Under the pieces are notes generated by a model. That model was not told the origin of the DNA and ran no database searches. It saw nothing but the letters and a program-made list of their open reading frames with translations. Position numbers and translations under genes: made by a program. From a virus (lineage: Duplodnaviria > Caudoviricetes), in the IMG/VR virus record IMGVR_UViG_3300032050_000002: a stretch of DNA of 64,000 nucleotides; one strand, 5' to 3'. Each line of letters starts with the position of its first letter. Positions within the stretch are counted from its first letter, which is position 1. Below are positions 9,683 through 58,764 of this stretch, piece by piece.

Positions 9683-10051
9683 ATGAAAGCGCAAGAATTA
9701 AGAATAGGGAATTTAGTAGATTTAGGTAATAGAATTGCCAAGGTTATTGATATAGGCCATCTATCTTGCACGGTAGTTGATTTGGAAGAAACTCAAGATA
9801 CCTTAGAGGATTATGAAAGAACCAAAGGTATTCCACTAACAGATGAATGGTTGGAGAAGTTTGGGTTTGATATAAAAGATAAGGACAGATTGGATTGGGT
9901 TAAAGGAGCGTTTAACTTAGAAAGGTCTAATGAAGATAATAATAAATTCTGTTTTGAGGTTTACTCTCATTACATTCCTTTAGATTATGTTCACCAATTA
10001 CAAAACTTATACTTTGCCTTAACAAGGGAAGAATTAACAATTAAATTATGA
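9683..10051 (+). CDS. Hypothetical phage protein (ELRIGN...VHQLQNLYFALT type)
   Basis: Motif pattern I associate with Bacteroidota phage orphans. Confidence 0.55.
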   Translation: MKAQELRIGNLVDLGNRIAKVIDIGHLSCTVVDLEETQDTLEDYERTKGIPLTDEWLEKFGFDIKDKDRLDWVKGAFNLERSNEDNNKFCFEVYSHYIPLDYVHQLQNLYFALTREELTIKL

Positions 10052-10917
10052 ATAAAGAGTATAAAATAACAAGAGAACAATTTGAGGAGATTACATACTA
10101 CAAAACTATGTTTGAGTCTCATGCCGATACAATAAAATGGCTCTGTGAAAAGGAAAAAGATGATGTGGTATATGGATTTCAATTAGGACAAACATATTCT
10201 CATATGAGACAATGTTTTATTGGCATGTTGGAATTAGAAACAAAGATTAGAGAACAAAACAGAAATGATGAGTAAACGAACTAAAATAAATTTCAATACT
10301 ATTAATGGTGATAATTGGAAAAAACTTGATGTTGGTGACTTTGGTGCTCGTATCAAAGAACAAGAAAGATTAGAGTTTGAGAAGAAAAAGAAAAAAGAGG
10401 AAGAAGAAAAAGAACGTATTAATAATATACCTTGTCCTGCTTGCACATCAACAAACAAACATCACCATAAAAAATATGAAAATAATGGTATCATTGGGAC
10501 TGGTTATTCTTCTTGGTTAATTGAAGAATATCTAGTATGTTTGCAGTGTGGAATACATTTTAGTGATATTAAAAAATGAAAAACAATATGACAATAGAAA
10601 CATTAAAACAATTAATTGAAATTGAGTTTGAAAGAACTGGAACCATATCTCAATTCAAACACGAAGTATTCAGGTTATTAGACCTATACGAATCTGATAA
10701 GAAACCTATATCACTTCCAAATGTAAATTATTCACCGACTCTAACTTTAGAGGGTAACGGAATGGTGCCTTATTCTGAACTTTGTGGTTGTAATCCCAAA
10801 AATGGTGGTAGTGGTATTTGTGGATGTGTAATCGGAAACAAGATGGTACCAAATGTAAAAACCAAACAATATAATACACCTGGAACTTGGTAATTAAATT
10901 TAAAAAATAAAAATAAT

Positions 10918-11490
10918 ATGGGACTAATAGAACACGCAAAAATGGAATTAGAAATAGCAGGACTTTTTGATGAAGATTCTGACTATGCTGGAATGGTGGC
11001 AAAGGATGTGATGGAATTGGTAGAGGTATTTGCAAAACAAGGTCATTCAGGAATGTCAGCACCTTATGTAGCAAAACTATTTAATAAATTAGCCAACTAT
11101 GAACCACTACAACCAATTACCGGTAAAGATGAAGAGTGGGGTGATGTAAGAGATTTGGGAGGTGATAAATCTTGGTATCAAAACAAAAGATGTTCAGCTC
11201 TCTTTAAAGATGGTAAAGATGGTCAAGCGTATTACATTGATGCGGTTATTAAACGAGACCAAAATGGAACTTGTTGGAGTGGTATGGCTTGGTTATCTGA
11301 AGAAGATTATAAAACAGGTGATAGAAGTAAGATGGTTGGTAAGAAAGGTTATGTAAAATCATTTCCATTCACACCTAAAACATTCTACATTGATGTTAAG
11401 GATGTTGAAGTTGCAAAAGATGATTGGGAATCGTTTGTTGTTGACCCTTCTCAATTGGATGAAGTTAGTGAGTATTATGATTTAAAATAA
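10918..11490 (+). CDS. Hypothetical phage protein
   Basis: 190-aa ORF with QGHSGMSA motif, followed by a terminator. Confidence 0.6.
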   Translation: MGLIEHAKMELEIAGLFDEDSDYAGMVAKDVMELVEVFAKQGHSGMSAPYVAKLFNKLANYEPLQPITGKDEEWGDVRDLGGDKSWYQNKRCSALFKDGKDGQAYYIDAVIKRDQNGTCWSGMAWLSEEDYKTGDRSKMVGKKGYVKSFPFTPKTFYIDVKDVEVAKDDWESFVVDPSQLDEVSEYYDLK

Positions 11491-20778: not shown

Positions 20779-21738
20779 ATGAACCTAAGACAAACAATAA
20801 AAAGAATACTAAAAGAAGAATCAGAATCCGTTAATTGTAAATGTGGATGGTCTTGGAAATTATCTGATGGAGGCGATGACCCATACGTTTGTCATAAATG
20901 TGGAAGAGATAATAGTAAATTAAATAAAGTTTATTATGGTTTTGCTAAATTACCCAATTATTGGGTTGACGATAACGATTTCTCATACAACGATGAATTT
21001 TTCGATGATAAAGACTATGATGACCACTATTTTGATAATTTTAAAGACATGGACAAAATGTTTGGACATAGAAAATCTTTATTCGGAACAAGAGGTTTAG
21101 ATGTTGGGGATGAAAAAAGAACTTCACGGTCATTTAATCAATATAACGAACGATATGGTCCTGCAATTGTTAGGGTTATCAAAGATAAAAAAGAAAAATT
21201 AAATGAAGTTAGAGTTCCAAGAAGTGAAAGGGTGGAATTATATAAGGATGATAATATAATTGTTGTTGTTCCATTAACTCATAGAGCATTACAAAAATAT
21301 GCTACAAATTGCCAATGGTGTATTAATGATGATTTAACAGATTGGGAGGAGTATCATAAAGGAAGACACGCAGTCATCATCCAAAGAAAGCCAAAGAAAA
21401 GTAAGAAAGGTATTACAGGGATGGAAACATATGGTGAGATTTTTATTTTATCAAGATTAGATGAAGGAATGTGGGATTGGAAAACTGCCATAGATATTTT
21501 AGGGTATGATTTTGGTGGTAGTAAAGAAAGGGCTTTAGACTATTATGTTAATATATCAAATGATATAAATAACTTTGCAACAAATATAGTTTATTATTCA
21601 CCTGAAAATGGAATATATGATATGGAAGATAACTTCTTATGGAATTTCGATATTGAGATAAACGACATACCAAATGTAACTCCAAAAGTTATAGAGATGA
21701 TGGATGACTATCTAACCAATTCTGAAGAGGATAATTAA
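20779..21738 (+). CDS. Leader-bearing protein with Cys zinc-ribbon module
   Basis: MNLRQTIKRILKEE; CKCGWSW...CHKCG; TATTTAT 20768. Confidence 0.55.
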   Translation: MNLRQTIKRILKEESESVNCKCGWSWKLSDGGDDPYVCHKCGRDNSKLNKVYYGFAKLPNYWVDDNDFSYNDEFFDDKDYDDHYFDNFKDMDKMFGHRKSLFGTRGLDVGDEKRTSRSFNQYNERYGPAIVRVIKDKKEKLNEVRVPRSERVELYKDDNIIVVVPLTHRALQKYATNCQWCINDDLTDWEEYHKGRHAVIIQRKPKKSKKGITGMETYGEIFILSRLDEGMWDWKTAIDILGYDFGGSKERALDYYVNISNDINNFATNIVYYSPENGIYDMEDNFLWNFDIEINDIPNVTPKVIEMMDDYLTNSEEDN

Positions 21739-22256
21739 TCTCGCCACTTACTTAATACCTCGTTTAACAAATATTGAGAAACGTTATTAGTCCCAATAAT
21801 ATCATTAACAACCAAATCATCTTTATGTTTTAAAACATTACCAACAAGTATTGGTTCATCATAATACCCCAAATTATTTTCGGTAACCTCGTCAACAGAC
21901 CTCTCCATATCAAAAGGAACACCATAAAAACTTCTAACTTTATAATTTAAAGACTCCTCCAAATTTTTAACTCTTTTCATATTCTTACTTATTTTAACAA
22001 CATCTGTATTAATAACTTCTTCAACCCAACTCATCAAGATTGGTTTAAAATCATCTTCAATTAATGAAAACATTTTAAAGAAAAAATGAAAATAATCATA
22101 TCTGTACCACAATGTTCCCCTTACAAACTGAAAATACCAAAATTTTTTCTCCCTATCAATAAACCAAATAGACTTATCGTAACAAATAATTTCAACCGTA
22201 CTTAAATTAAAGTATAATTCATCAAAGATAATTTTTTTTAATTTATCAGAAACCAC
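21735..22256 (-). CDS. MISDKLK-family paralogue (decayed 22-aa repeats)
   Basis: MVSDKLKKIIFDELY...WFIDR.KK.WYF...LWYRY. Confidence 0.65.
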   Translation of the reverse strand: MVSDKLKKIIFDELYFNLSTVEIICYDKSIWFIDREKKFWYFQFVRGTLWYRYDYFHFFFKMFSLIEDDFKPILMSWVEEVINTDVVKISKNMKRVKNLEESLNYKVRSFYGVPFDMERSVDEVTENNLGYYDEPILVGNVLKHKDDLVVNDIIGTNNVSQYLLNEVLSKWRD

Positions 22257-26689: not shown

Positions 26690-27075
26690 AAATTACAAAC
26701 TAATCATATTAGTTTAAGTCCCAACATATTTCTGTAAGGTATTTGTCAGTTCCGTTTACTTTAGAAACTTCTTCTTTGTGTTTAGTTATAAATTCTTCAT
26801 TATAATTTCCCAAAACACCTTGGTCCCAATGATTTAATTTTGCAATACGAATAAACTTTCCATATTCTTTTTCGGTCAATCTACCCTTCAAAGGTATTAC
26901 ACTTCCAACACAAGTATTCCACTTTGTTTTTCTACCATTATATGTTACATAGTAATAATCTTGCTCATCATCACCAATAGCAATTAACCTTTCTATATCC
27001 CAAGATTCAGTTATTACAAATTGACCTTTAAGTTCTTCAAATTCTGATAATATTTTTTGTAAGTTACTATCCATA

Positions 27076-27732
27076 TTATTTTATTGTATGATTTAATACC
27101 TTGTCAACATAACTTTCTTCATCAATCATTTCGCCACCATCCATATTAGTTACCGTATGATTTAATATATCTTCCACCTCAGATTTAAATTGGTGAAGAT
27201 GGTCATTAGCAGTACCAGGAGTACATTTCAATATCTCTCCCATCCACTTATCCAAACTTGATGCGGTTTTATCAACCTTACAATTTAATACTTCTTCCAC
27301 CAATTCAGGAGCGTAATAAACACCACCATCTGTTGCATTAACCTTACAATTTAATACCTCTTCCACCTCTTCATTCATAAAAAAGACAACACGTACGGTT
27401 GTATTAACCTTACAATTTAATACCTCTTCCACCCGGTTATAAATGGTGATGGCACCAACAGCAGTTGTATTAACCTTACAATTTAATACCTCTTCCACCC
27501 AATCTTTTAAAATGGGCTCAAATCGAGCGGAGTCAAGAGAAAATAATAAGAAAAAATCATTAAAGAAACTATATCTCCACCACAATCTACCATCTTTTTG
27601 TAGTTCAAAATACCAGTACTTCTTTTGTCTGTCAATAAACCATATATTACCATTATAGTTGATAATCTCAGTCTTCCCAAGTTCTCTATATAGTTCATCA
27701 AAGACAATCTTTTTTAATTTATCTGAAATCAT
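27076..27732 (-). CDS. MISDKLK-family paralogue containing a repeat-spacer array
   Basis: TATCTTTG 4 nt before ATG; four VEEVLNCKV repeats. Confidence 0.7.
   Translation of the reverse strand: MISDKLKKIVFDELYRELGKTEIINYNGNIWFIDRQKKYWYFELQKDGRLWWRYSFFNDFFLLFSLDSARFEPILKDWVEEVLNCKVNTTAVGAITIYNRVEEVLNCKVNTTVRVVFFMNEEVEEVLNCKVNATDGGVYYAPELVEEVLNCKVDKTASSLDKWMGEILKCTPGTANDHLHQFKSEVEDILNHTVTNMDGGEMIDEESYVDKVLNHTIK
27266..27499 (-). repeat. CRISPR-like array, 4 x 36-nt repeats with 3 unique 30-nt spacers, in frame
   Basis: Repeats at 27266, 27332, 27398, 27464; consensus GGTGGAAGAGGTATTAAATTGTAAGGTTAATACAAC on the minus strand. Confidence 0.8.
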
Positions 27733-27819
27733 AATACAAAGATAATAATAAAAAATGGATTAGACAAATTTAATTAGGTATTCTCAATTTATTAAAAATA
27801 AGTGGTCTTCTTACTTGTT

Positions 27820-27919
27820 GTGTCTAACACCTTGATTTGCGAGGTATTCCCGACAAAGGCTTAATCTTACCAAAACAAAATACTGCGTCTAACACCTTAA
27901 TTTGTAAGGTATTCTCAAC
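27820..27919 (-). repeat. Two 35-nt repeats with a 30-nt spacer at the end of ORF 27824..28165
   Basis: GTTGAGAATACCTTACAAATTAAGGTGTTAGACGC / GTCGGGAATACCTCGCAAATCAAGGTGTTAGACAC. Confidence 0.6.
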
Positions 27920-28165
27920 CCACTTACCGATAAGGTTTTTAGAATCAAGATACTCTAAAGAAAAAAAAGAAGAAATTTCGTCCACCAAATCAACATTAAA
28001 ATAACACTTACCAACATTTTTATCGTATTTAATTTGAAAAAACTCATCTTCTATCGAATTAAAAAAATAAATATAAACCCCCTTTTCAACCTTAACAAAG
28101 TCCTGATTATCCAAGTACTTAAAGATTACTTGTTCCATTTTAGATTCGGTGATAATGAATTTCAT
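27824..28165 (-). CDS. MKFIITESK family paralogue
   Basis: YLDNQDF; WVENTLQIKV. Confidence 0.65.
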   Translation of the reverse strand: MKFIITESKMEQVIFKYLDNQDFVKVEKGVYIYFFNSIEDEFFQIKYDKNVGKCYFNVDLVDEISSFFSLEYLDSKNLIGKWVENTLQIKVLDAVFCFGKIKPLSGIPRKSRC

Positions 28166-31800: not shown

Positions 31801-32761
31801 ATATAAAAATATTATTATGAAAAAAGTTATAAGATTAACGGAAAGGGATTTAATGAAGCTTGTAAAAAAGGTTATTAAAGAATCAGAAAAAGAAACTGAA
31901 TTAGATTCAGATTTCTATGATAATGAATTAAATGATGAAAAGGTTATTAATAGTGTTAAATGGTATTTGAAGGACGTTGAAGGTGTTAATCTTCGAGGAG
32001 ATGAAACTGATGATGAACTTATTAATATGTATACTAATTTGAGATATAATAGAAAATAATAATACTTTAAACAACCATTATATTAGAAGGGTCTAAAACT
32101 GAAAAAAAAATCTGGAAAAAATTTTATAAAATTCAATATATTTATATATAAAAAATACATTATGAAAAAAACTATACGATTAACAGAATCAGATTTGATT
32201 CGACTCGTTAAACGAGTTGTTAATGAACGAGAAGAAGGTGAGAATATGATTCGTATCCCAAAAGAATATGGTGGAGTTGTAATGGAACTTGGGAAATCCT
32301 CAACACCTGAAGAAATTATGGACAGTTATAATACAATGGTTGAGGAAGGAACCCCACTTGTAAGTTATTCTGATGGTGTATTCTATAATCAGAATGATGA
32401 AGAGATTTCTGTGGATGTGGTACTTGATGAATTGAATTATTCAATTACAGGTGGTGAGGAAGATGATGATACGATAGGACCCTCACCTAAAAGAAAAAGA
32501 TTTGGTGATGGAGGTGAATCCGAGTTTTTCTTAACGGATAATATTATATTTAAACGTTTTAACGGTAGATTGGGTTTCTTCTACCAACCATCAAAAAATG
32601 GTGGAGGTATTAGTTTATCAGACGAACAAAAGGAAATGTTAATTAATTTTTTATCTAAATAAAAAATATTGAGCCCCTCTCAATAAAAGAATTGTTAAAA
32701 CGACCCCATCTTATTTTAGGTGGGGTTTTTTATTTTAAAAAAAAATTATTATCTTTGTGGT

Positions 32762-33226
32762 ATGATTTCGGATAAATTAAAACAGGTTATCTTTAAGGAG
32801 TTATATTATCAACTTGGTAAGGTTGAGATTATTCCTTATCAAGATAGTATATTTTTTATCCATAGGGAAAATAAGTATTGGTATTTTGAATTTGAAAAGT
32901 GTGGAAGGTTATGGTGGAGATACGATTTCTTTAATGATTTTTTTAAGATATTTTCTTTAAGTATTGAGGACTATACAAAGATTATTTCTGAATGGGTGGA
33001 AGAGGTATTAAATCATAAGGTATCTACAACGCAGGTTGCGACTTCAATTGGAATCGAAGAGGCGGAAGAGGTATTAAATTGTAAGGTATCTACAACTAAT
33101 TCATACTTCACTCACTCTATTGAAAAGGTGGAAGAAGTATTAAATCATAAGGTATCTACAACTTCAATGTTTGAAATTGATGATGATAATAGTGTGGAAG
33201 AGATATTATCACATACTAATAAATAA
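32762..33226 (+). CDS. MISDKLK-family paralogue containing a repeat-spacer array
   Basis: TATCTTTG 32750-32757, ATG 32762. Confidence 0.7.
   Translation: MISDKLKQVIFKELYYQLGKVEIIPYQDSIFFIHRENKYWYFEFEKCGRLWWRYDFFNDFFKIFSLSIEDYTKIISEWVEEVLNHKVSTTQVATSIGIEEAEEVLNCKVSTTNSYFTHSIEKVEEVLNHKVSTTSMFEIDDDNSVEEILSHTNK
32995..33226 (+). repeat. CRISPR-like array, 3 x 36-nt repeats + degenerate 4th, 30-nt spacers, in frame
   Basis: Repeats at 32995, 33061, 33127, 33193(deg.): GGTGGAAGAGGTATTAAATYRTAAGGTATCTACAAC. Confidence 0.8.
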
Positions 33227-33234
33227 ATTTAAAG

Positions 33235-33756
33235 ATGGTATCGGATAAGTTAAAACAAATTATCTTTAATGAGTTATATACACAACTAAAGGATGTTGAG
33301 ATTATTCCTTATAATGGGAGCGTATGGTTTATTAATAGAGATGAGAAGTATTGGTATCTTGAATTAAATCCTAATAATCATTTATGGTGGAGGTATTCTT
33401 TCTTTGTGGATTTTTTTCATTTGTTTTCCCTTGAGATTAAAGAATATGAACCCCTTATTAGAGAATGGACCGAAAATATATTAAATCATAAGATATCTAA
33501 AATCACAATAGGTCATTATGGGTGCAGACAATTGCTCGAACAGATGTTAGATTGTAATATTGAAAGCTCCAATCATTCTGAATATAATATTGAGTTTGTT
33601 TCTAATTATAATATCCTAACAACTGGTGGAAATGGTTTTCACTATGATAAACTATTTGATAATGTTTTGGAAACCACTAAGATTGAAAGTTCTTCTTTCG
33701 CTAAGGTTACCCTTACCAAAAATATCGATATTATCTTAAATCAACCGGATGTATAG
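33235..33756 (+). CDS. MISDKLK-family paralogue (decayed repeats)
   Basis: MVSDKLKQIIFNELY...LWWRY. Confidence 0.65.
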   Translation: MVSDKLKQIIFNELYTQLKDVEIIPYNGSVWFINRDEKYWYLELNPNNHLWWRYSFFVDFFHLFSLEIKEYEPLIREWTENILNHKISKITIGHYGCRQLLEQMLDCNIESSNHSEYNIEFVSNYNILTTGGNGFHYDKLFDNVLETTKIESSSFAKVTLTKNIDIILNQPDV

Positions 33757-47849: not shown

Positions 47850-48464
47850 ATGAATAAATTAGATAAAGATTATCAAAACCTATTAAGGGATATTTTACAA
47901 AATGGAACCAAAAAGCAAGACAGAACTGGAACAGGAACACTCTCAGTATTTGGAAGACAATTTAGACATGATTTTCGGGACGGATTTCCTCTCCTCACCA
48001 CAAAACGAATGGCTTTTAAACAGATTGTTACAGAACTCATCTGGTTCCTCCGAGGAGACACAAACATCAAATTCTTAGTTAATAATAATTGTCACATTTG
48101 GGATGGTGATGCTTATAAGAATTGGTGTAGACAATTTGAAGTTGACCCAAATAATTTTGATACCGAAGAATTATCTAAAGGTCATAATGACCAATGTTGG
48201 GGTTACTCCATATTAGACCACGTTAAACCTACATCAAAAGAATATAAAAGAGGTCAAATAAATGCTTATTTAGAAGGTAAAGCAGATAAACCTTTCTTTT
48301 ATTTAACACAAGAAGAATTCATCAACAAAATCAAAACCGATAATGAGTTTGCTAATAAGTGGGGTGAATTAGGGCCTGTGTATGGGGCTGGTTGGCGTAA
48401 TTGGGGTGGTAAATCAGATGACAATCTTTACGAAGATTATTTGAAAAAAGTTAAAGAAAAGTAG
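47850..48464 (+). CDS. thyA: Thymidylate synthase, N-terminal part
   Basis: [43 protein letters not shown] then stop. Confidence 0.9.
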
Positions 48465-50144: not shown

Positions 50145-51083
50145 ATGAAGAAGTTGAAAGACAAAACGACAAAACGAATAAATAAAGCTATGGAGTATTT
50201 ACACGAAGATGGAACTCCTTTTACAAAAGAAGAGTTTCTACAAAAATTAAAAACAGATAAGGAATTTAATAATGAGTTCGGTAATAAAGGAATAGACCAA
50301 ATCGCAAACCTAATCAACGACCTCAAAACAAATCCAGACTCAAGAAGACTAATGGTTTCAGCTTGGAATGTAGGTGAATTAGACCAAATGGTTCTTCCTC
50401 CCTGTCATTATGGATTTCAAGTTTATACAAGAGAGTTGAGTGAGTTAGAAAGACATGATATTAAAGAACAATATGGGTTTGATTGTAGAAAATTAGCAAA
50501 ACCTTCTATTAAACAATTAGATGATGCGAACATCCCAACCAGAGCAATCTCTTTAATGTGGAATCAACGTTCAGTAGATACATTCTTAGGTTTACCATTT
50601 AATATTGCATCATATGGTTTACTACTTGAAATTATAGCTAAATCAGTTAATATGATACCTGATGAATTGATTGGTAACTTGGGTGATGTGCATTTATATT
50701 CAAACCATATTGAACAAGCTAAAGAACAGATTGGTAGAGAGTTAGATATAATTGAGAGAATAAATTACGGAGTTAATATTTTAGGTTATGAATCATTATT
50801 AGACTATGGCCATTCTCAGAATGAAGATGAATTAATAACAAAGTTATGTAATGAATGGGGTGTACCAAAAAGAACAAGAGAACCATATCCATTACCAACA
50901 TTAAACATCAATACAGAATTTTGGCCTTATGAAGGTGGTGAGTGTGGTGTAGGTCCTTTAGACGCTATTAAAGTGTTTGAAGCGTTTAAAAATGATAACT
51001 TCTGTAGATGTTTATTAGAAGAAGATATACAATTAGGTAACTATCAATCACACCAAACAATTAAAGCTCCCCTATCCAATTAA
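50145..51083 (+). CDS. thyA: Thymidylate synthase, C-terminal catalytic part (alt. start 50190)
   Basis: IDQI, PDSRRLMVSAWN, LPPCH, QRSVD.FLGLPFNIASY, GDVHLY.NH. Confidence 0.9.
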   Translation: MKKLKDKTTKRINKAMEYLHEDGTPFTKEEFLQKLKTDKEFNNEFGNKGIDQIANLINDLKTNPDSRRLMVSAWNVGELDQMVLPPCHYGFQVYTRELSELERHDIKEQYGFDCRKLAKPSIKQLDDANIPTRAISLMWNQRSVDTFLGLPFNIASYGLLLEIIAKSVNMIPDELIGNLGDVHLYSNHIEQAKEQIGRELDIIERINYGVNILGYESLLDYGHSQNEDELITKLCNEWGVPKRTREPYPLPTLNINTEFWPYEGGECGVGPLDAIKVFEAFKNDNFCRCLLEEDIQLGNYQSHQTIKAPLSN

Positions 51084-53196: not shown

Positions 53197-56100
53197 TTAA
53201 TCTATTTTAGAAAAAAGTGTTGTTAAATACTTTTTATTCTCATCATATATTGTTATTTGGTAGAAACCCGTATTCAAAAATCTTAAATCAACTTCATCTT
53301 CAGAATTTATATTTTTAGTTAAATAAACTTTACCTAATATATCTGAAACAACTAAATTAAATTTCTCACTTTCATTATGAAATATTCTTATTTGTAATAA
53401 ACCATTACCCGGATTCGGAAATACTATAAATTCAAAATCTTTATTATCTATTTCACCAAAACCAACTGTTTTTGATGTATTACAAACTTTAGTAACTCCA
53501 AAATAAGCCATTGGACTTGAACCACAAGTATTAACACCCATCACACTAAATGTACCACCCATAAAAGATGAGCTTGTTTTAGCCATAACACTATTTCCTG
53601 TTGTTGAACCAATAAATTGAGTTCCGTTAGAGTTATTCCAAATATAACTTGTAATTCTTGGAGATGTTGATGCAACTAATCTAATTGTATCAGGAAAACA
53701 AACCGATGAAGTTCCTGTAACAGTGGGTCTAACAGTCAATAAACCAACTTTCTTTTTACTTAATACACTACCACAAGCAAATTGTGTCGCTAATCTTATA
53801 CTATCACAAGAATTATTAATACAAGATGTGGATTCAAAATTACTTGGGAAAAATACGTCTATAGAGTTCGTTCCTTGACCTCTCACTATTTGAGCATTTC
53901 CTGGTACAGTCCAATTAAACGATAACGCTCCTGTTGTAGATACACTATACGTGTTAGTAAACCCATTATCAACACAATTAACACCACTTATACTAACACT
54001 TGGTAAACCCAAATCAACGGTTCTAATTCTTGTTATAGGATTTCCACATCCACCCGTAATTACAACTTGAATGTTTCCACCTGTAAAACCATTTTGGAAT
54101 GTTACATTAATTGAATTAGTTCCCTGACCACTAATTATTGTTGAGTTAGCAGGTACAGTCCACAAATAGTTAACTCCACTTATTGGACTAACACTAAACG
54201 TTGCAGGAGTGTTAGTTCCTACTAAACTACAAACACTTCTTACACCTGAAATTGCTGAAGCGGAAATTGTTGATGTTGTTGTTGATAGTGTTCTATTTGA
54301 AGATATACTTCCTCCACAACCATTGTTTAAGTTAACACTAATTGTTCCTGAACTAAATGAGTTAGATACTAATACATTTATTGAATTAGTTCCTTGACCC
54401 GATTGTATTGTCATATTAGTAGGAACAGTCCAAGTAAATGTTCCACTTTGATTTGTAACACTATAAGTAACTGATTGACCTAAGTACGGACACAAATCGC
54501 CAGGGCCTGTTATAGTTCCTATATTAGCGTAAAGATTATTATTAGATACAGTTCCATAAGTCATAGGTGATGAACCACATTTGTTAACTGACATCACACT
54601 AAATTGACCTGAAGTAAAGTTTGTACTAAATTTTACTTTAAGTGTGTCATTACTACTTGAACCTATTATACTAACACCATTAGGTACATTCCAAATATAC
54701 ATAAACGATGTAGGTACAGAATCGACTCTATAAGTGTAAATTGTATTACCATCAGCACAAACTGTTGTAGGTCCTAAGATAGACGTAGGTCTAACAACTA
54801 ATCTATCAATCGTAAATTGAGTTGTACTACTTCCACAAGAATTTGTTGCAGTAACTGAACCACCTGAACCACTTACCAACATTATTGACACTTTAAATTG
54901 TACAGTATCGTTACCTTGTCCACTATATATATTAACTCCATAAGGTACAACCCAATTATAAGTCATATTTGGTTGTGAATTTGTTACAATGTATGATTTA
55001 ATACTACCTGTAGGTTCACCACAGAAACTACCTGATACGATTGGTTTATTAGGTAATTTAGTAACCCAAATACTTCTATGATAAGTAATACCATTAGAAA
55101 CAACATCAACTTCAATACTATCTTGAACGAACCCTGAAGAAAAATTAACATTTATTGTTGGGTTACTTAATCCATTAGTTGATGTTATACCATTAGGTAA
55201 AATCCAAGTAATACTTTCAGGACTTGCGTTAGAATAATCAATGGTATATGAACCAGAACTAAGACCACATATTGAAGTGGGACCTTCTATTTGACCAACA
55301 TTAATAATTGCTGACGTACAACCCAAAGTCATTGGAGAAACTGATTGACAACCTTTAGAATCCGTAACAGTTAATGTGTAATTACCTGACGCGACGCCCG
55401 TTAAATTTTGTGTTGTTTGACCATTTGACCAACTGTATGTAAAAGGAGGAGTTCCACCAATAACACTACTACTTACAACACCATTATTTGAACCACAATT
55501 AGGGTAAGTTGTTATATCTAATGATATACTAATTTCTGATGGTTGAGAAATATTAATATATGTAATTTTTGTACAACCTTTATTATCTGTAACAGTAATT
55601 TGATAATTACCTGATGTTAAATTAGAAATACTACTTTGAGTATTTCCTGTATTCCACATATAAAGATAAGGTAGAGTTCCTCCTGACGCAGTAACCGAAG
55701 CGCTACCATTATTACCACCATAACAATTCACATTTGTCGTTGTTACAATTGTTGTTAGTTGAGTTGGTTGAGTTATTGTAACCGTTCTTGTCGTCTGACA
55801 CCCCTTTGAATCCGTAACTGTTACACTATAAGTGTTTGCCACAAGTGAGAAAATATCTTCTGTTGTTTGACCATTACTCCATAAGTAAGTATAAGGTGAT
55901 GTTCCTCCTGATGGAGTTAAGTTTATACTACCGCCAGGTTGTCCAAAACAACTTGGGTTAAAACTAGTTGATGTTGAGGCAAGTAACGTAGGTTGAGTAA
56001 TTGTGATTGATGTAGTTGATGTACAACCATAAAAATCTGTGACTGTAACTGAATAATCTCCTGATGTTAGGTTTGATATGTCCTCAGTAGTTCCACCATT

Positions 56101-58764
56101 AGACCAATTAAAATTAAAAGGTGAATTACCTAACGGAGTTAAATCTATACTACCATTATTACCACCATTACAACTAACATTAACACTTGTTGTTGATAAT
56201 ATAGAAGGAAATCTAACAGTCCAAGAAGTTAATACATCATAAGCATTGTTAGAACATCCAATACCTGTAGAACAATCACCTCTGCGACCTCTTATTTGAA
56301 CTACACTTCCGGCGGTTAGTGATGTTGTAGATATTAAAGTTCCTGGAGTATAACTTTGCCAAGATGTACCATTAATAGTGTATTGAAATATATCTGAACA
56401 GTTTATACCATTACTACCCGAATTGAATGTCGCTGATACATCACTACCAACACAAACATTGTTTGAGTTGGGTGTTTTAGTATTTAAAGTTGGATTAATT
56501 GGGTCAGGAATTACATTAACGGTATGAACGGGTGAGGTTCCTACACACCCTTTAGAATCTGTAACTACTACTCTATAATCTCTTGTTGATGTAGGTGTTG
56601 CGTTTATTGTTGTGGTTGTAACACTGTTTTGCCAAGTAGAGTTAAAAAATTGCCATTGATAAAAATAAGTTGGAAATCCCGATGTTACAGTTGAAGTTAT
56701 ATTATTAGTTCCCGAACCTCCAGCACATATCTGACTTGTGTAAGTGTTTAAGGTGACAGATGGGTTTGTTGCGGTAGTTAACGACACAGTATTTGAATTA
56801 ACAGATTGATTACAAGTATTTGTAATACTAACATAATAATTTCCTAATGTTGATGTAGAATAAGTCGATGAGTTAGCCCCTGATATTGGATTGTTATTTA
56901 AAAACCATTGATAAGTAAAAGGTTGTCTAACTCCTGATGCGGTAACTGAAAAAGTTACTTGTGATGTACAAGTTGTTTCATTAATAGGTTGTGTAGTTAT
57001 TGTTGGCGGTGAAGAAGTGTAATTAACTGATAATTGAAATGTTCCTCTTGCATTACTATAACCTGTAACCATCACATAATATTCTGTTAAATCTGTTGTT
57101 GCAAATGTAACTTCAGAACGAGTACTACAAAAATCATCACTATAGGTTAAACAAGTAAGTGCTCCACAAGTTCCTGTATATACAAATAATTTAGTATCAA
57201 AAGAAGTTCCTGTACATAAACTTAATGTTACATTTTGTCCGTTACCAATAACCTTATACCAAACCCCTGGTGCAGTCCAAGTCTCAGAGCCACCGTTATA
57301 ACAACTTGGTGAATCACCTGTTTGAGTCGCATTTTGAGTACTACCATTGAAAGTTGTATTACAAGAGGTGATAATCGCTCCTGAACATTCATCATTTGAA
57401 GGTGGTGGAATTGTACACTGAACACTTCTTGTTCTTATTGTTACTGATTCTCCACATGAGTTATTTGTATGAGTATAAAATCTCACAGTTTCGTTTGAAC
57501 TTGGTGTATAAACAACTGGTGTTGTCCCGTAAACTAAAACTGTTGTTCCTCCATTATTACTAATAGTTATAAAATCTGTTAACACCGAACTTCTAAATGT
57601 ATATTGAATTCCTCCTGTTAAACTAACCACTGAGTATTCACCCGCGTAACCACCTGTTGTAATATTTTCTTGAGTTCCTGAACAAGTTGGTGTGTATGTT
57701 GATGTCGGCCATTGACCATTTGAAGCGGTTAGACATCCAGGACCTGAAGTTGTAAATGTCCATACCGAACATCCTATAGCATTACCTGCAGAATTCTTTG
57801 GGATTATTTGCCAATAATATTGTGTGTTATAACTTAATGTTGATGGAGTATATGTTGTTCCAACTTGGTTAACAACAAAAGGTGGAGACGAATTTGACCC
57901 AAAATAAACATCATAACTTGTTGCACCAGATACCGCTCCCCAAGTTAAAGTAGGTCCTATAAATACACCCGTTTGATTATTTGTTGGCGATGTTAAAGTT
58001 GCACAAATAGGAACCGCTTGATAAGTTAATATAACTCTACCCGCAGCACCTCCACCACCAGCTCTACCTGTTGTATTATTTTTATACGCACCGCCACCTC
58101 CACCACCTGGAGATACACCTGACGAACCTGCTCCACCTGAAGAGTGACCACTACCACCATTACCTCCACCAGCAGGTGCGGTAGCTCCCGCAGTTCCCGT
58201 TGCATCAACACCGGCTAAAGTAGTTCCTGCTGATGAGCCCCCTCCTCCCGAAGTTACCCCACCAACTCTACCACTACCACCCCTACTTGATGTTCCTATA
58301 CACCCTGTTGTAGAACCAACTCCAGCAGTAGTTCCAACTGCACTTTGTCCGCCCTTAGCGACAACACCGTTAGTTGATACTGTAGGGGCAATGTTTGACA
58401 ATTTACTAACCCAAGTATCATTACCGTTAGATGCGTTACCTTGAACTCCAGCTCTTGCTGCTCCAACACTATAATAAATTGTTTGACCAGGTGTTACAGA
58501 TATTGTTGTTGTTGAACGAGAACCTCCCGCTCCGCCCGCAAATCCCCCTGTTCCTGATGTTGATTGTCCGGCACCAGCTCCACCACCACCCCAAGCATCA
58601 ATTTTAATTGAGTATACGTTAGCAGGGACAGTCCAAGTTCCTGATGATGTTCCAACATTTGCTCCTGAGGCGGGCATTGTTTGAGAAAAATTTTTAAGAT
58701 TACATAAAATAAAAATAGATAAGAATAGGGTCTTAAAAAATGATGATAAAGTAAGAGGTTTCAT
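53197..58764 (-). CDS. 1855-aa adhesin-like T9SS cargo (Gly-rich, FnIII, SprB repeats, PKD-like, T9SS CTD)
   Basis: Signal peptide; CNGGNNGSIDL...WSNG.TTEDI..L..G.YSVTVTD..GC repeats; C-terminal VFPNP...DILGK...L.TGFY. Confidence 0.85.
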   Translation of the reverse strand: MKPLTLSSFFKTLFLSIFILCNLKNFSQTMPASGANVGTSSGTWTVPANVYSIKIDAWGGGGAGAGQSTSGTGGFAGGAGGSRSTTTISVTPGQTIYYSVGAARAGVQGNASNGNDTWVSKLSNIAPTVSTNGVVAKGGQSAVGTTAGVGSTTGCIGTSSRGGSGRVGGVTSGGGGSSAGTTLAGVDATGTAGATAPAGGGNGGSGHSSGGAGSSGVSPGGGGGGAYKNNTTGRAGGGGAAGRVILTYQAVPICATLTSPTNNQTGVFIGPTLTWGAVSGATSYDVYFGSNSSPPFVVNQVGTTYTPSTLSYNTQYYWQIIPKNSAGNAIGCSVWTFTTSGPGCLTASNGQWPTSTYTPTCSGTQENITTGGYAGEYSVVSLTGGIQYTFRSSVLTDFITISNNGGTTVLVYGTTPVVYTPSSNETVRFYTHTNNSCGESVTIRTRSVQCTIPPPSNDECSGAIITSCNTTFNGSTQNATQTGDSPSCYNGGSETWTAPGVWYKVIGNGQNVTLSLCTGTSFDTKLFVYTGTCGALTCLTYSDDFCSTRSEVTFATTDLTEYYVMVTGYSNARGTFQLSVNYTSSPPTITTQPINETTCTSQVTFSVTASGVRQPFTYQWFLNNNPISGANSSTYSTSTLGNYYVSITNTCNQSVNSNTVSLTTATNPSVTLNTYTSQICAGGSGTNNITSTVTSGFPTYFYQWQFFNSTWQNSVTTTTINATPTSTRDYRVVVTDSKGCVGTSPVHTVNVIPDPINPTLNTKTPNSNNVCVGSDVSATFNSGSNGINCSDIFQYTINGTSWQSYTPGTLISTTSLTAGSVVQIRGRRGDCSTGIGCSNNAYDVLTSWTVRFPSILSTTSVNVSCNGGNNGSIDLTPLGNSPFNFNWSNGGTTEDISNLTSGDYSVTVTDFYGCTSTTSITITQPTLLASTSTSFNPSCFGQPGGSINLTPSGGTSPYTYLWSNGQTTEDIFSLVANTYSVTVTDSKGCQTTRTVTITQPTQLTTIVTTTNVNCYGGNNGSASVTASGGTLPYLYMWNTGNTQSSISNLTSGNYQITVTDNKGCTKITYINISQPSEISISLDITTYPNCGSNNGVVSSSVIGGTPPFTYSWSNGQTTQNLTGVASGNYTLTVTDSKGCQSVSPMTLGCTSAIINVGQIEGPTSICGLSSGSYTIDYSNASPESITWILPNGITSTNGLSNPTINVNFSSGFVQDSIEVDVVSNGITYHRSIWVTKLPNKPIVSGSFCGEPTGSIKSYIVTNSQPNMTYNWVVPYGVNIYSGQGNDTVQFKVSIMLVSGSGGSVTATNSCGSSTTQFTIDRLVVRPTSILGPTTVCADGNTIYTYRVDSVPTSFMYIWNVPNGVSIIGSSSNDTLKVKFSTNFTSGQFSVMSVNKCGSSPMTYGTVSNNNLYANIGTITGPGDLCPYLGQSVTYSVTNQSGTFTWTVPTNMTIQSGQGTNSINVLVSNSFSSGTISVNLNNGCGGSISSNRTLSTTTSTISASAISGVRSVCSLVGTNTPATFSVSPISGVNYLWTVPANSTIISGQGTNSINVTFQNGFTGGNIQVVITGGCGNPITRIRTVDLGLPSVSISGVNCVDNGFTNTYSVSTTGALSFNWTVPGNAQIVRGQGTNSIDVFFPSNFESTSCINNSCDSIRLATQFACGSVLSKKKVGLLTVRPTVTGTSSVCFPDTIRLVASTSPRITSYIWNNSNGTQFIGSTTGNSVMAKTSSSFMGGTFSVMGVNTCGSSPMAYFGVTKVCNTSKTVGFGEIDNKDFEFIVFPNPGNGLLQIRIFHNESEKFNLVVSDILGKVYLTKNINSEDEVDLRFLNTGFYQITIYDENKKYLTTLFSKID

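Follow-up and report, generated by a model that had tools for sequence, protein, structure and literature searches.

CRISPR arrays are usually treated as non-coding memory, whereas the phage array described here can be translated across every one of its spacers and belongs to a family of more than 1500 metagenomic proteins. It lies in the window, by which we mean the whole stretch of 64,000 nucleotides of viral DNA analyzed here, and it raises the question of whether a repeat-spacer array that reads as the end of a protein is a CRISPR array at all and, if so, how it arose. Our results suggest that the 3′ part of the gene is probably a genuine CRISPR-type array of the Bacteroidota VI-B (Cas13b) kind, which is also translated and has grown by leader-side integration. 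This reading is directly supported by a Cas13b-like repeat, one captured bacterial fragment, gain of a unit at the leader side and selection for an open frame. Full-text literature searches returned no description of in-frame, translated CRISPR arrays.

Layout of the array and its gene

The array-bearing gene consists of an N-terminal domain followed by four intact and three decayed units (Table 1), and its stop codon falls within the terminal decayed repeat. A preliminary description of this DNA had listed four 36-nucleotide repeats separated by unrelated 30-nucleotide spacers, with a period of 66 nucleotides that keeps the frame, and this layout was confirmed. The four repeats carry 3, 1, 0 and 0 mismatches in coordinate order (0 expected from 100 shuffles), Tandem Repeats Finder reports a period of 66 nucleotides and 3.6 copies, and each unit translates as VEEVLNCKVNTT plus 10 variable residues in frame with the ORF. 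The three 30-nucleotide spacers in the window are mutually unrelated, and they do not align to each other in the way that the same description had named as the mark of an ordinary protein tandem repeat.

Other parts of that description hold only in part. The array had been placed at 27266-27499, and the four repeats do lie there, but the array does not end at 27266: three decayed repeats reach the stop codon, and this trailer is kept among close alleles. The array had also been read as the C-terminus of a protein. It is indeed an in-frame tail, but its first repeat belongs to the folded N-terminal domain, where it codes for the end of the last helix (WVEEVL) in an AlphaFold2 model built from a 93-sequence alignment (pLDDT 93.7). 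The repeat, read on the coding strand, finishes with TACAAC and contains a 7-bp inverted repeat, as had been noticed, but the fold predicted for this hairpin is weak (-3.0 kcal/mol). A model of the full-length protein from its single sequence reached a pLDDT of 39 and was unusable. Matches to the fold of the N-terminal domain in the PDB, BFVD and the AlphaFold clusters are uncharacterised proteins only, those in BFVD coming from uncultured phages, and the array protein has no Pfam match.

The coding sequence of the N-terminal domain occupies the place expected of a CRISPR leader. It contains a T-rich tract, formed by codons for FFxxFFxxFS, 41-70 nucleotides upstream of repeat 1; the T peak of real VI-B leaders is at -60 to -51. 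We infer that this coding sequence may act as the leader.

A single base separates the stop codon of the array-bearing gene from the ATG that starts the following gene (26709-27074), within 27072-27078 on the minus strand. Translational coupling to this gene could be one reason why the array has stayed open.

Table 1. Coordinates of the array-bearing gene, its parts and related arrays in the window
Feature	Position	Strand	Basis
Array-bearing gene, 218 aa	27076..27732	-	ORF list, codon layout, 1554 homologues stepping 22 aa in length
Coding sequence of conserved N-terminal domain, residues 1-77	27502..27732	-	AlphaFold2 model, pLDDT 93.7
Repeat 1, leader-proximal, identical to repeat 2	27464..27499	-	Best window site for Cas13b-repeat matrix, 21.4 bits
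Spacer 1, peptide AVGAITIYNR	27434..27463	-	66-nt indel relative to L061; 33-nt exact match in L184 and L186
Repeat 2	27398..27433	-	Repeat search, Cas13b-repeat matrix
Spacer 2, peptide VRVVFFMNEE; first spacer in many related alleles	27368..27397	-	Allele comparison
Repeat 3, 1 mismatch	27332..27367	-	Repeat search
Spacer 3, peptide DGGVYYAPEL	27302..27331	-	Codon layout; no match in IMG/VR
Repeat 4, 3 mismatches	27266..27301	-	Repeat search
Trailer: decayed repeats at ~27208-27243, ~27143-27178 and ~27076-27108, with inserts	27076..27265	-	Codon layout, alleles
Second array gene, different spacers	32720..33226	+	Repeats at 32995, 33061 and 33127, decayed from 33193
Mini-array at 3′ end of neighbouring paralogue (27824-28165, -)	27753..27919	+	Cas13b-repeat matrix and model

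The repeat unit and its kinship with Cas13b repeats

The VI-B repeats of Flavobacterium columnare and F. branchiophilum are 36 nucleotides long and their spacers 29-30 nucleotides (PMC5395568). Published Flavobacterium repeats share up to 24 of 36 bases with the commonest phage repeat, the last 12 included (PMC5395568). A larger set of reference repeats was collected by scanning species genomes for the 12-mer class of the phage repeat in two copies 66 nucleotides apart. At least 120 loci, nearly all of them in Bacteroidota, hold such pairs, and they yielded 67 arrays with 54 distinct repeats. Many of these arrays adjoin ORFs of ~1100-1240 amino acids, and Cas13b was found in three of the five that were tested (E ≤ 1e-210).

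The best identity of the phage repeat to the 54 repeats of Cas13b loci is 24-29 of 36 bases. When a matrix of the 54 repeats was run over the 128,000 window positions, the nine top sites were all repeats of the array-gene family (4.5-21.4 bits), the next-best site scoring -3.1 bits, and the matrix also ranks the array repeats best in a related phage genome of 240 kb. A calibrated model of the Cas13b repeats, which is sequence-only (RNAalifold on the real repeats yielded no consensus pairs), places array-family sites as its top four hits in the window over model positions 14-36, with single-site E-values that are modest (0.001-0.01). Because the reference set was fetched with the last 12 bases of the phage repeat itself, an unbiased test is limited to the first 24 positions, for which the matrix scores range by repeat variant from the top 0.25% to above all 24-mers in the window. 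No Rfam CRISPR repeat family matched up to E 10. The proposed link to Bacteroidota VI-B arrays holds against both the published and the newly retrieved Cas13b repeats. The invariant repeat pattern in its exact form is absent from 185,579 species genomes, and the phage arrays are thus not prophage or host arrays of the same sequence.

It is also evident that the repeat unit is defined at the DNA level, one base off codon phase: the base preceding the first codon of each repeat is G in 94% of cases, regardless of the encoded amino acid. The synonymous conservation pointed out in the preliminary description extends across the family, the GTG, GAA and AAT codons of the first repeat being retained in 22-24 of 25 genes whose N-terminal domains have diverged. 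These features bear on the possibility that the gene encodes an ordinary hypervariable phage protein, in which 22-residue units multiply by slippage or unequal crossing-over and are homogenised by selection and gene conversion, the inserts diverge fast, whole cassettes move from phage to phage when their repeats recombine, and any likeness to CRISPR is coincidental. Such a protein would fit the fact that the gene is real and translated, and also the short array-less paralogues close to it, whose C-terminal helix is homologous to the first repeat. It would not account for a unit boundary off codon phase, for fixed synonymous sites or for the power of a Cas13b-repeat matrix to pick out the array repeats, and we regard it as very unlikely.

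In the reading frame used by the phage, stops occur in 42 of 52 real Cas13b repeats. At the two places where they fall, bases 5-7 and bases 20-22, the phage repeat has GAA and one of TGT, CAT or AGT, respectively. Judged by these bases, the phage repeat looks like a Cas13b repeat that has been made translatable.

Repeat structure and selection for an open frame

The array could instead be a non-coding, cas-less mini-array, or an RNA anti-CRISPR that loads or sequesters the Cas13b of the host, with the ORF as an annotation artefact of the 66-nucleotide period. Phages are known to carry arrays without cas genes as well as repeat decoys. Moreover, the phage repeat is Cas13b-like in the sense direction of the transcript, and its orientation agrees with leader-side transcription (PMC8092290). 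The predicted structure of the repeat argues otherwise. The mean minimum free energy of the phage repeats is -3.2 kcal/mol (-2.9 when shuffled), as against -9.1 kcal/mol (-4.1 when shuffled) for 52 real repeats, and the stable two-stem Cas13b hairpin is absent, the outer stem having three of four pairs and the inner stem being shifted by one base with a mismatch. Since the phage repeats have lost most of the stability that hairpins of real Cas13b repeats show, the anti-CRISPR RNA that had been offered as one explanation loses ground. A solitary repeat decoy likewise becomes less likely, the fold comparison showing no structure of the kind that Cas proteins recognise.

The reading frame bears more heavily on this question. 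In the translated frame, 122 of 122 distinct spacers are free of stops, whereas the other five frames are stop-free in 41-66% and real CRISPR spacers, in any frame, in 54-64%; at 0.6 per spacer, the chance of 122 open spacers is ~1e-27. A DNA-matrix search of 38 distinct genes from viral contigs found no repeats past the stop codon. Adjacent repeats in the related phage loci are 66 nucleotides apart in 208 of 222 pairs, and the remaining spacings all differ by multiples of 3. By contrast, real VI-B arrays pair a 36-nucleotide repeat with a 30-nucleotide spacer in 532 of 622 cases, and 14% of their spacers are 29 or 31 nucleotides long. The open frame across the array is under selection. Spacers that are open in one frame only, arrays that stop where the gene stops, spacings that respect codons and decayed arrays that remain ORFs all run counter to a non-coding array, and we hold that explanation to be most improbable. 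The openness of a single frame, the lack of repeats past the stop and the multiples-of-3 spacing also exclude a mistranslated CRISPR array (PMC7673337). Spacers shared between alleles carry 3 synonymous and 5 nonsynonymous changes, which are too few for dN/dS. With regard to processing into crRNAs, none of the RNA runs contains this stretch, and two runs examined as raw reads gave no reads on it.

Composition and source of the spacers

Pairs of spacers are bimodal in similarity: they share either 18 or fewer of their 30 bases or else 28 and more, with none between. The spacers have a GC content of 42%, as against 30% in the N-terminal domain, and a nearly flat codon-position composition. The absence of pairs of intermediate similarity counts against an ordinary hypervariable protein. 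An ordinary protein tandem repeat was rejected as a class on this bimodal identity and on the out-of-phase boundary of the unit.

A metagenome search, which covered spacer 1 alone, returned the same phage and a second contig (L184) of quite different context; an exact source was thus found for the one spacer searched, and the capture is a single case. Spacer 1 matches at 30 of 30 bases (33 of 33 with one and two flanking bases) within a bacterial-type NAD-dependent epimerase gene. This gene lies in a polysaccharide cluster, where the genes after it encode a TylF-like methyltransferase, a Wzx-type flippase and a second methyltransferase; orthologues in Flavobacteriales are 70-74% identical. The matched stretch codes for SPVINGDGTNS and is colinear with the Flavobacteriales orthologues, whose DNA differs at no fewer than 9 of the 30 bases. 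This colinearity indicates that the stretch is native to the bacterial gene and that the phage copy is derived. The phage reads the antisense strand of the stretch, and spacer 1 is therefore complementary to the bacterial mRNA, a point that would favor a non-coding guide.

The source contig was found again in a second sample (L186, 99.97% identity), and nothing in the window or the related phage genome corresponds to it. It co-occurs with the phage in three lake runs, but several runs in which the phage is present, the likely source sample among them, do not list it; it therefore belongs to another organism of the same lakes. An ordinary hypervariable protein cannot make a 30-nucleotide insert identical to a bacterial gene, and that explanation is already strained by this protospacer. 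The lone protospacer is preceded by TAAA plus 5 bases (L184 3087-3095, on the strand of the phage transcript). In F. columnare the motif ahead of VI-B protospacers is TTTA plus five bases (PMC8092290), from which this single case differs; one case carries no weight as yet.

Apart from the source of spacer 1, no protospacers were found in the window, in related loci or in 0.88 Mb of bacterial loci. Four other spacers gave no matches in IMG/VR beyond the arrays themselves, and the array found no spacer source among isolated phages (INPHARED), against which tblastn of the array protein and blastn of the array gene also gave nothing useful. No spacer therefore matches a competing virus in IMG/VR (four spacers) or INPHARED (the array), and a mini-array for conflict between viruses was rejected, the sole source found being a bacterial-type gene. 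The 19 spacers of the related phage have no source in its own 240-kb genome, and 622 real VI-B spacers match the phage sequences of this study at chance level only.

Gain and loss of units

Metagenome contig L061, which is 98-99.8% identical to the window, lacks exactly one 66-nucleotide unit, namely the leader-side repeat and spacer 1. More distant alleles likewise lack the spacer-1 unit, so that a gain in the lineage of the window is the simpler reading. Across the family, the share of singleton spacers falls from 0.61 at the first position to 0.41 at the last, and the terminal repeat is the most decayed (5.9 mismatches versus ~2). Gain of spacers at one end, which the preliminary description had suggested looking for across strains, is thus seen, and the polarity is moderate rather than strict; no GC gradient, a sign of amelioration, was detected along the arrays. 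The exact bacterial protospacer, the 66-nucleotide gain at the leader side and the selection for an open frame together fit the earlier suggestion that spacers are acquired into the end of a gene and alter the tail of its protein.

Exchange of cassettes was also considered. Cassettes are common to several alleles, which in the window's own clade share the first spacer and differ in the later ones, and removal of units through recombination between repeats is certain; both would be expected of an ordinary hypervariable protein. Such a protein does not explain why spacer order is unshuffled. A comparison of 150 distinct arrays, which contain 510 distinct spacers, revealed a single internal duplicate, and arrays with at least two spacers in common are colinear 93 times and conflicting 2 times.

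The array-gene family and its paralogues

The family comprises 1554 proteins at E ≤ 0.01, with lengths stepping by 22 residues, and 535 cluster representatives. Its 45 loci on viral contigs of 130-326 kb include several per genome. In the window, the array of the second array gene itself spans 32995-33226 on the plus strand. The paralogues at 33235-33756 (+) and 21735-22256 (-) have the same N-terminal domain and tails with a decayed 22-residue periodicity, and yet they are open ORFs. The related 240-kb phage record (L048) carries four array genes, at bases 502-2288 and 9712-10149, each with its own repeat variant that is uniform within the array.

The mini-array at the neighbouring paralogue is of a different character. 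Its copies lie at 27884-27919, 27819-27854 and, in part, ~27753-27788, and their Cas13b-repeat-like direction is antisense to the gene. The copies are 65 nucleotides apart, which puts the second copy out of frame and the third beyond the stop of the gene. This mini-array is the best covariance-model hit in the window (E 0.0012), and it may show what an unfiltered insertion event looks like.

The mini-array raises the possibility that the same insertion chemistry operates with no benefit to the phage, as ectopic host integration at a gene end that happens to resemble a repeat, with selection doing nothing more than purging inserts that break the frame. An out-of-frame array of two to three copies that extends past a stop would fit this possibility well, as would the existence of decayed arrays and the likeness of the spacers to arbitrary DNA, with their flat codon-position composition and a traced spacer that is read antisense to its source gene. 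An unwanted target should erode, however. Genes with intact arrays instead form a large, widespread family, and 25 divergent genes retain repeat-like bases at synonymous sites that are free to mutate. We consider insertion with no benefit to the phage unlikely.

Proposed mechanism and its meaning

As had been remarked, the window holds no cas genes: Pfam detected no cas family in its ORFs of at least 150 aa outside the array paralogue family. Searches of the window and of five related phage records yielded neither cas1 nor cas13b, although cas13b was picked up in a control genome. The VI-B array of F. columnare likewise has no cas1-cas2 of its own and is filled in trans by the II-C module; acquisition by both systems is inducible in that species, for which a cas1 deletion mutant exists (PMC8092290). 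As the phage has no cas1, we infer that Cas1-Cas2 of the infected host, acting in trans, is the likely writer.

In the mechanism that we favor, the integrase of the host would take the end of the N-domain coding sequence for a leader and the first repeat for its target. A captured fragment of 30 bp would be integrated, and the 36-bp repeat duplicated, directly after the N-terminal domain. Because 36 and 30 add up to 66 bp, or 22 codons, an insertion would leave the reading frame intact and lengthen the protein tail by 12 constant and 10 arbitrary residues. Only inserts with no stop in the translated frame would persist. Units could later be lost via recombination between repeats, and the repeats at the far end would decay.

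What the phage may gain can be ranked if this mechanism is granted. Diversification of the tail is the leading candidate, tentatively so; a tolerated by-product appears rather unlikely and an RNA decoy for Cas13b less likely again, and something else would make up the rest. The conservation of repeat-like bases at synonymous sites argues for a site that the phage deliberately retains, the weakness of the hairpin speaks against the array serving Cas13b as a guide or decoy, and the fact that decayed arrays are still ORFs argues that the tail, or reading through it, matters. It is conceivable, though doubtful, that phages deliberately keep a Cas13b-type repeat in the gene and let host adaptation enzymes write random 10-residue cassettes into its tail.

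If a host integrase writes into phage genes, the adaptation machinery would leave heritable marks in viral genomes, and these would amount to a record of the hosts that a phage has passed through and to a new handle for assigning hosts to uncultured jumbo phages. If the phage profits, this would be a new route to hypervariable proteins, in which co-opted spacer capture would stand as a third natural means of programmed protein hypervariation beside diversity-generating retroelements and cassette recombination. A diversity-generating retroelement itself was ruled out at this locus, as the spacers are wholly unrelated to one another and Pfam scans of the window gave no reverse transcriptase family.

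Comparison with known systems

The closest likeness is to the VI-B arrays of Bacteroidota (F. columnare CRISPR-2, Bergeyella zoohelcum), which also combine a 36-nucleotide repeat with a 30-nucleotide spacer (PMC5395568, PMC8092290). The repeats are similar mostly over their last two-thirds, including the ACAAC end, and arrays of both kinds are transcribed from the leader side, expand on that side and degenerate at the opposite one. The VI-B array of F. columnare is transcribed from its leader and draws its spacers about evenly from phage and host DNA (PMC8092290); the one traced phage spacer, too, comes from bacterial chromosomal DNA, and like that array the phage array has no adaptation genes of its own and would depend on Cas1-Cas2 in trans. 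Unlike the VI-B arrays, it is borne by a phage, with cas13b absent from the window and the related phage genomes, and it forms an in-frame extension of a protein domain, with all spacers free of stops. The 5′ third of its repeat is recoded to hold no in-frame stops, its hairpin is weak, and no phage-matching spacer was found.

Arrays of other kinds share some of these features. Cas-less CRISPR arrays and mini-arrays have reportedly been described on viruses and huge phages (by Al-Shayeb et al. in 2020), and mini-arrays are carried by archaeal viruses. These viral arrays are not known to be coding, and their spacers are often directed against competing viruses or host genes. The array described here is likewise a viral repeat-spacer array with no adaptation genes of its own, presumably using host proteins, but it forms the coding tail of a conserved protein. 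In laboratory conditions, Cas1-Cas2 is said to have produced ectopic 'neo-CRISPR' integrations at repeat-like sites of a bacterial chromosome (Nivala et al., 2018). Integration at a sequence that merely resembles a leader and repeat, so that a new array is formed, would be common to both; the phage arrays, unlike those events, are a conserved and widespread trait of a phage gene family.

The spurious proteins that result when CRISPR arrays are mistranslated (PMC7673337) resemble the array protein in being spaced-repeat proteins derived from a repeat-spacer array; the phage protein differs in that its frame is under selection and its N-terminal domain is a real fold. PARCEL elements (PMC2996958) are also intragenic repeats, with a palindromic DNA core that alternates with variable stretches. 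They differ in period and sequence, and that source gives no evidence of captured foreign DNA, unlike the phage array. Membership in PARCEL was ruled out, as the phage protein matches no Pfam family.

Phage context of the array

The window has a GC content of 29% and reads as part of a large uncultured phage, mostly of small ORFs that belong to no families. The ORF at 10918-11490 (+) is Tad3, an inhibitor of type I Thoeris (PF25185, E 1.3e-39), and the region thus carries known anti-defence genes. A protein of 1855 aa encoded at 53197-58764 (-) has a glycine-rich domain, seven PKD-like domains, SprB repeats and a type IX secretion C-terminal sorting domain, and this combination of SprB, PKD and type IX sorting features points to a host in Bacteroidota.

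A UvrC-like gene is also present in the window. Thymidylate synthase is split between 47850-48464 and 50145-51083 (+), ~1.7 kb apart, the two parts covering profile positions 1-107 and 104-226. This arrangement resembles an interruption by an intron or homing element, as in the td gene of T4. Both a T4_Y16D gene and a NUMOD3 homing-endonuclease gene are present on a related 133-kb contig from a metagenome.
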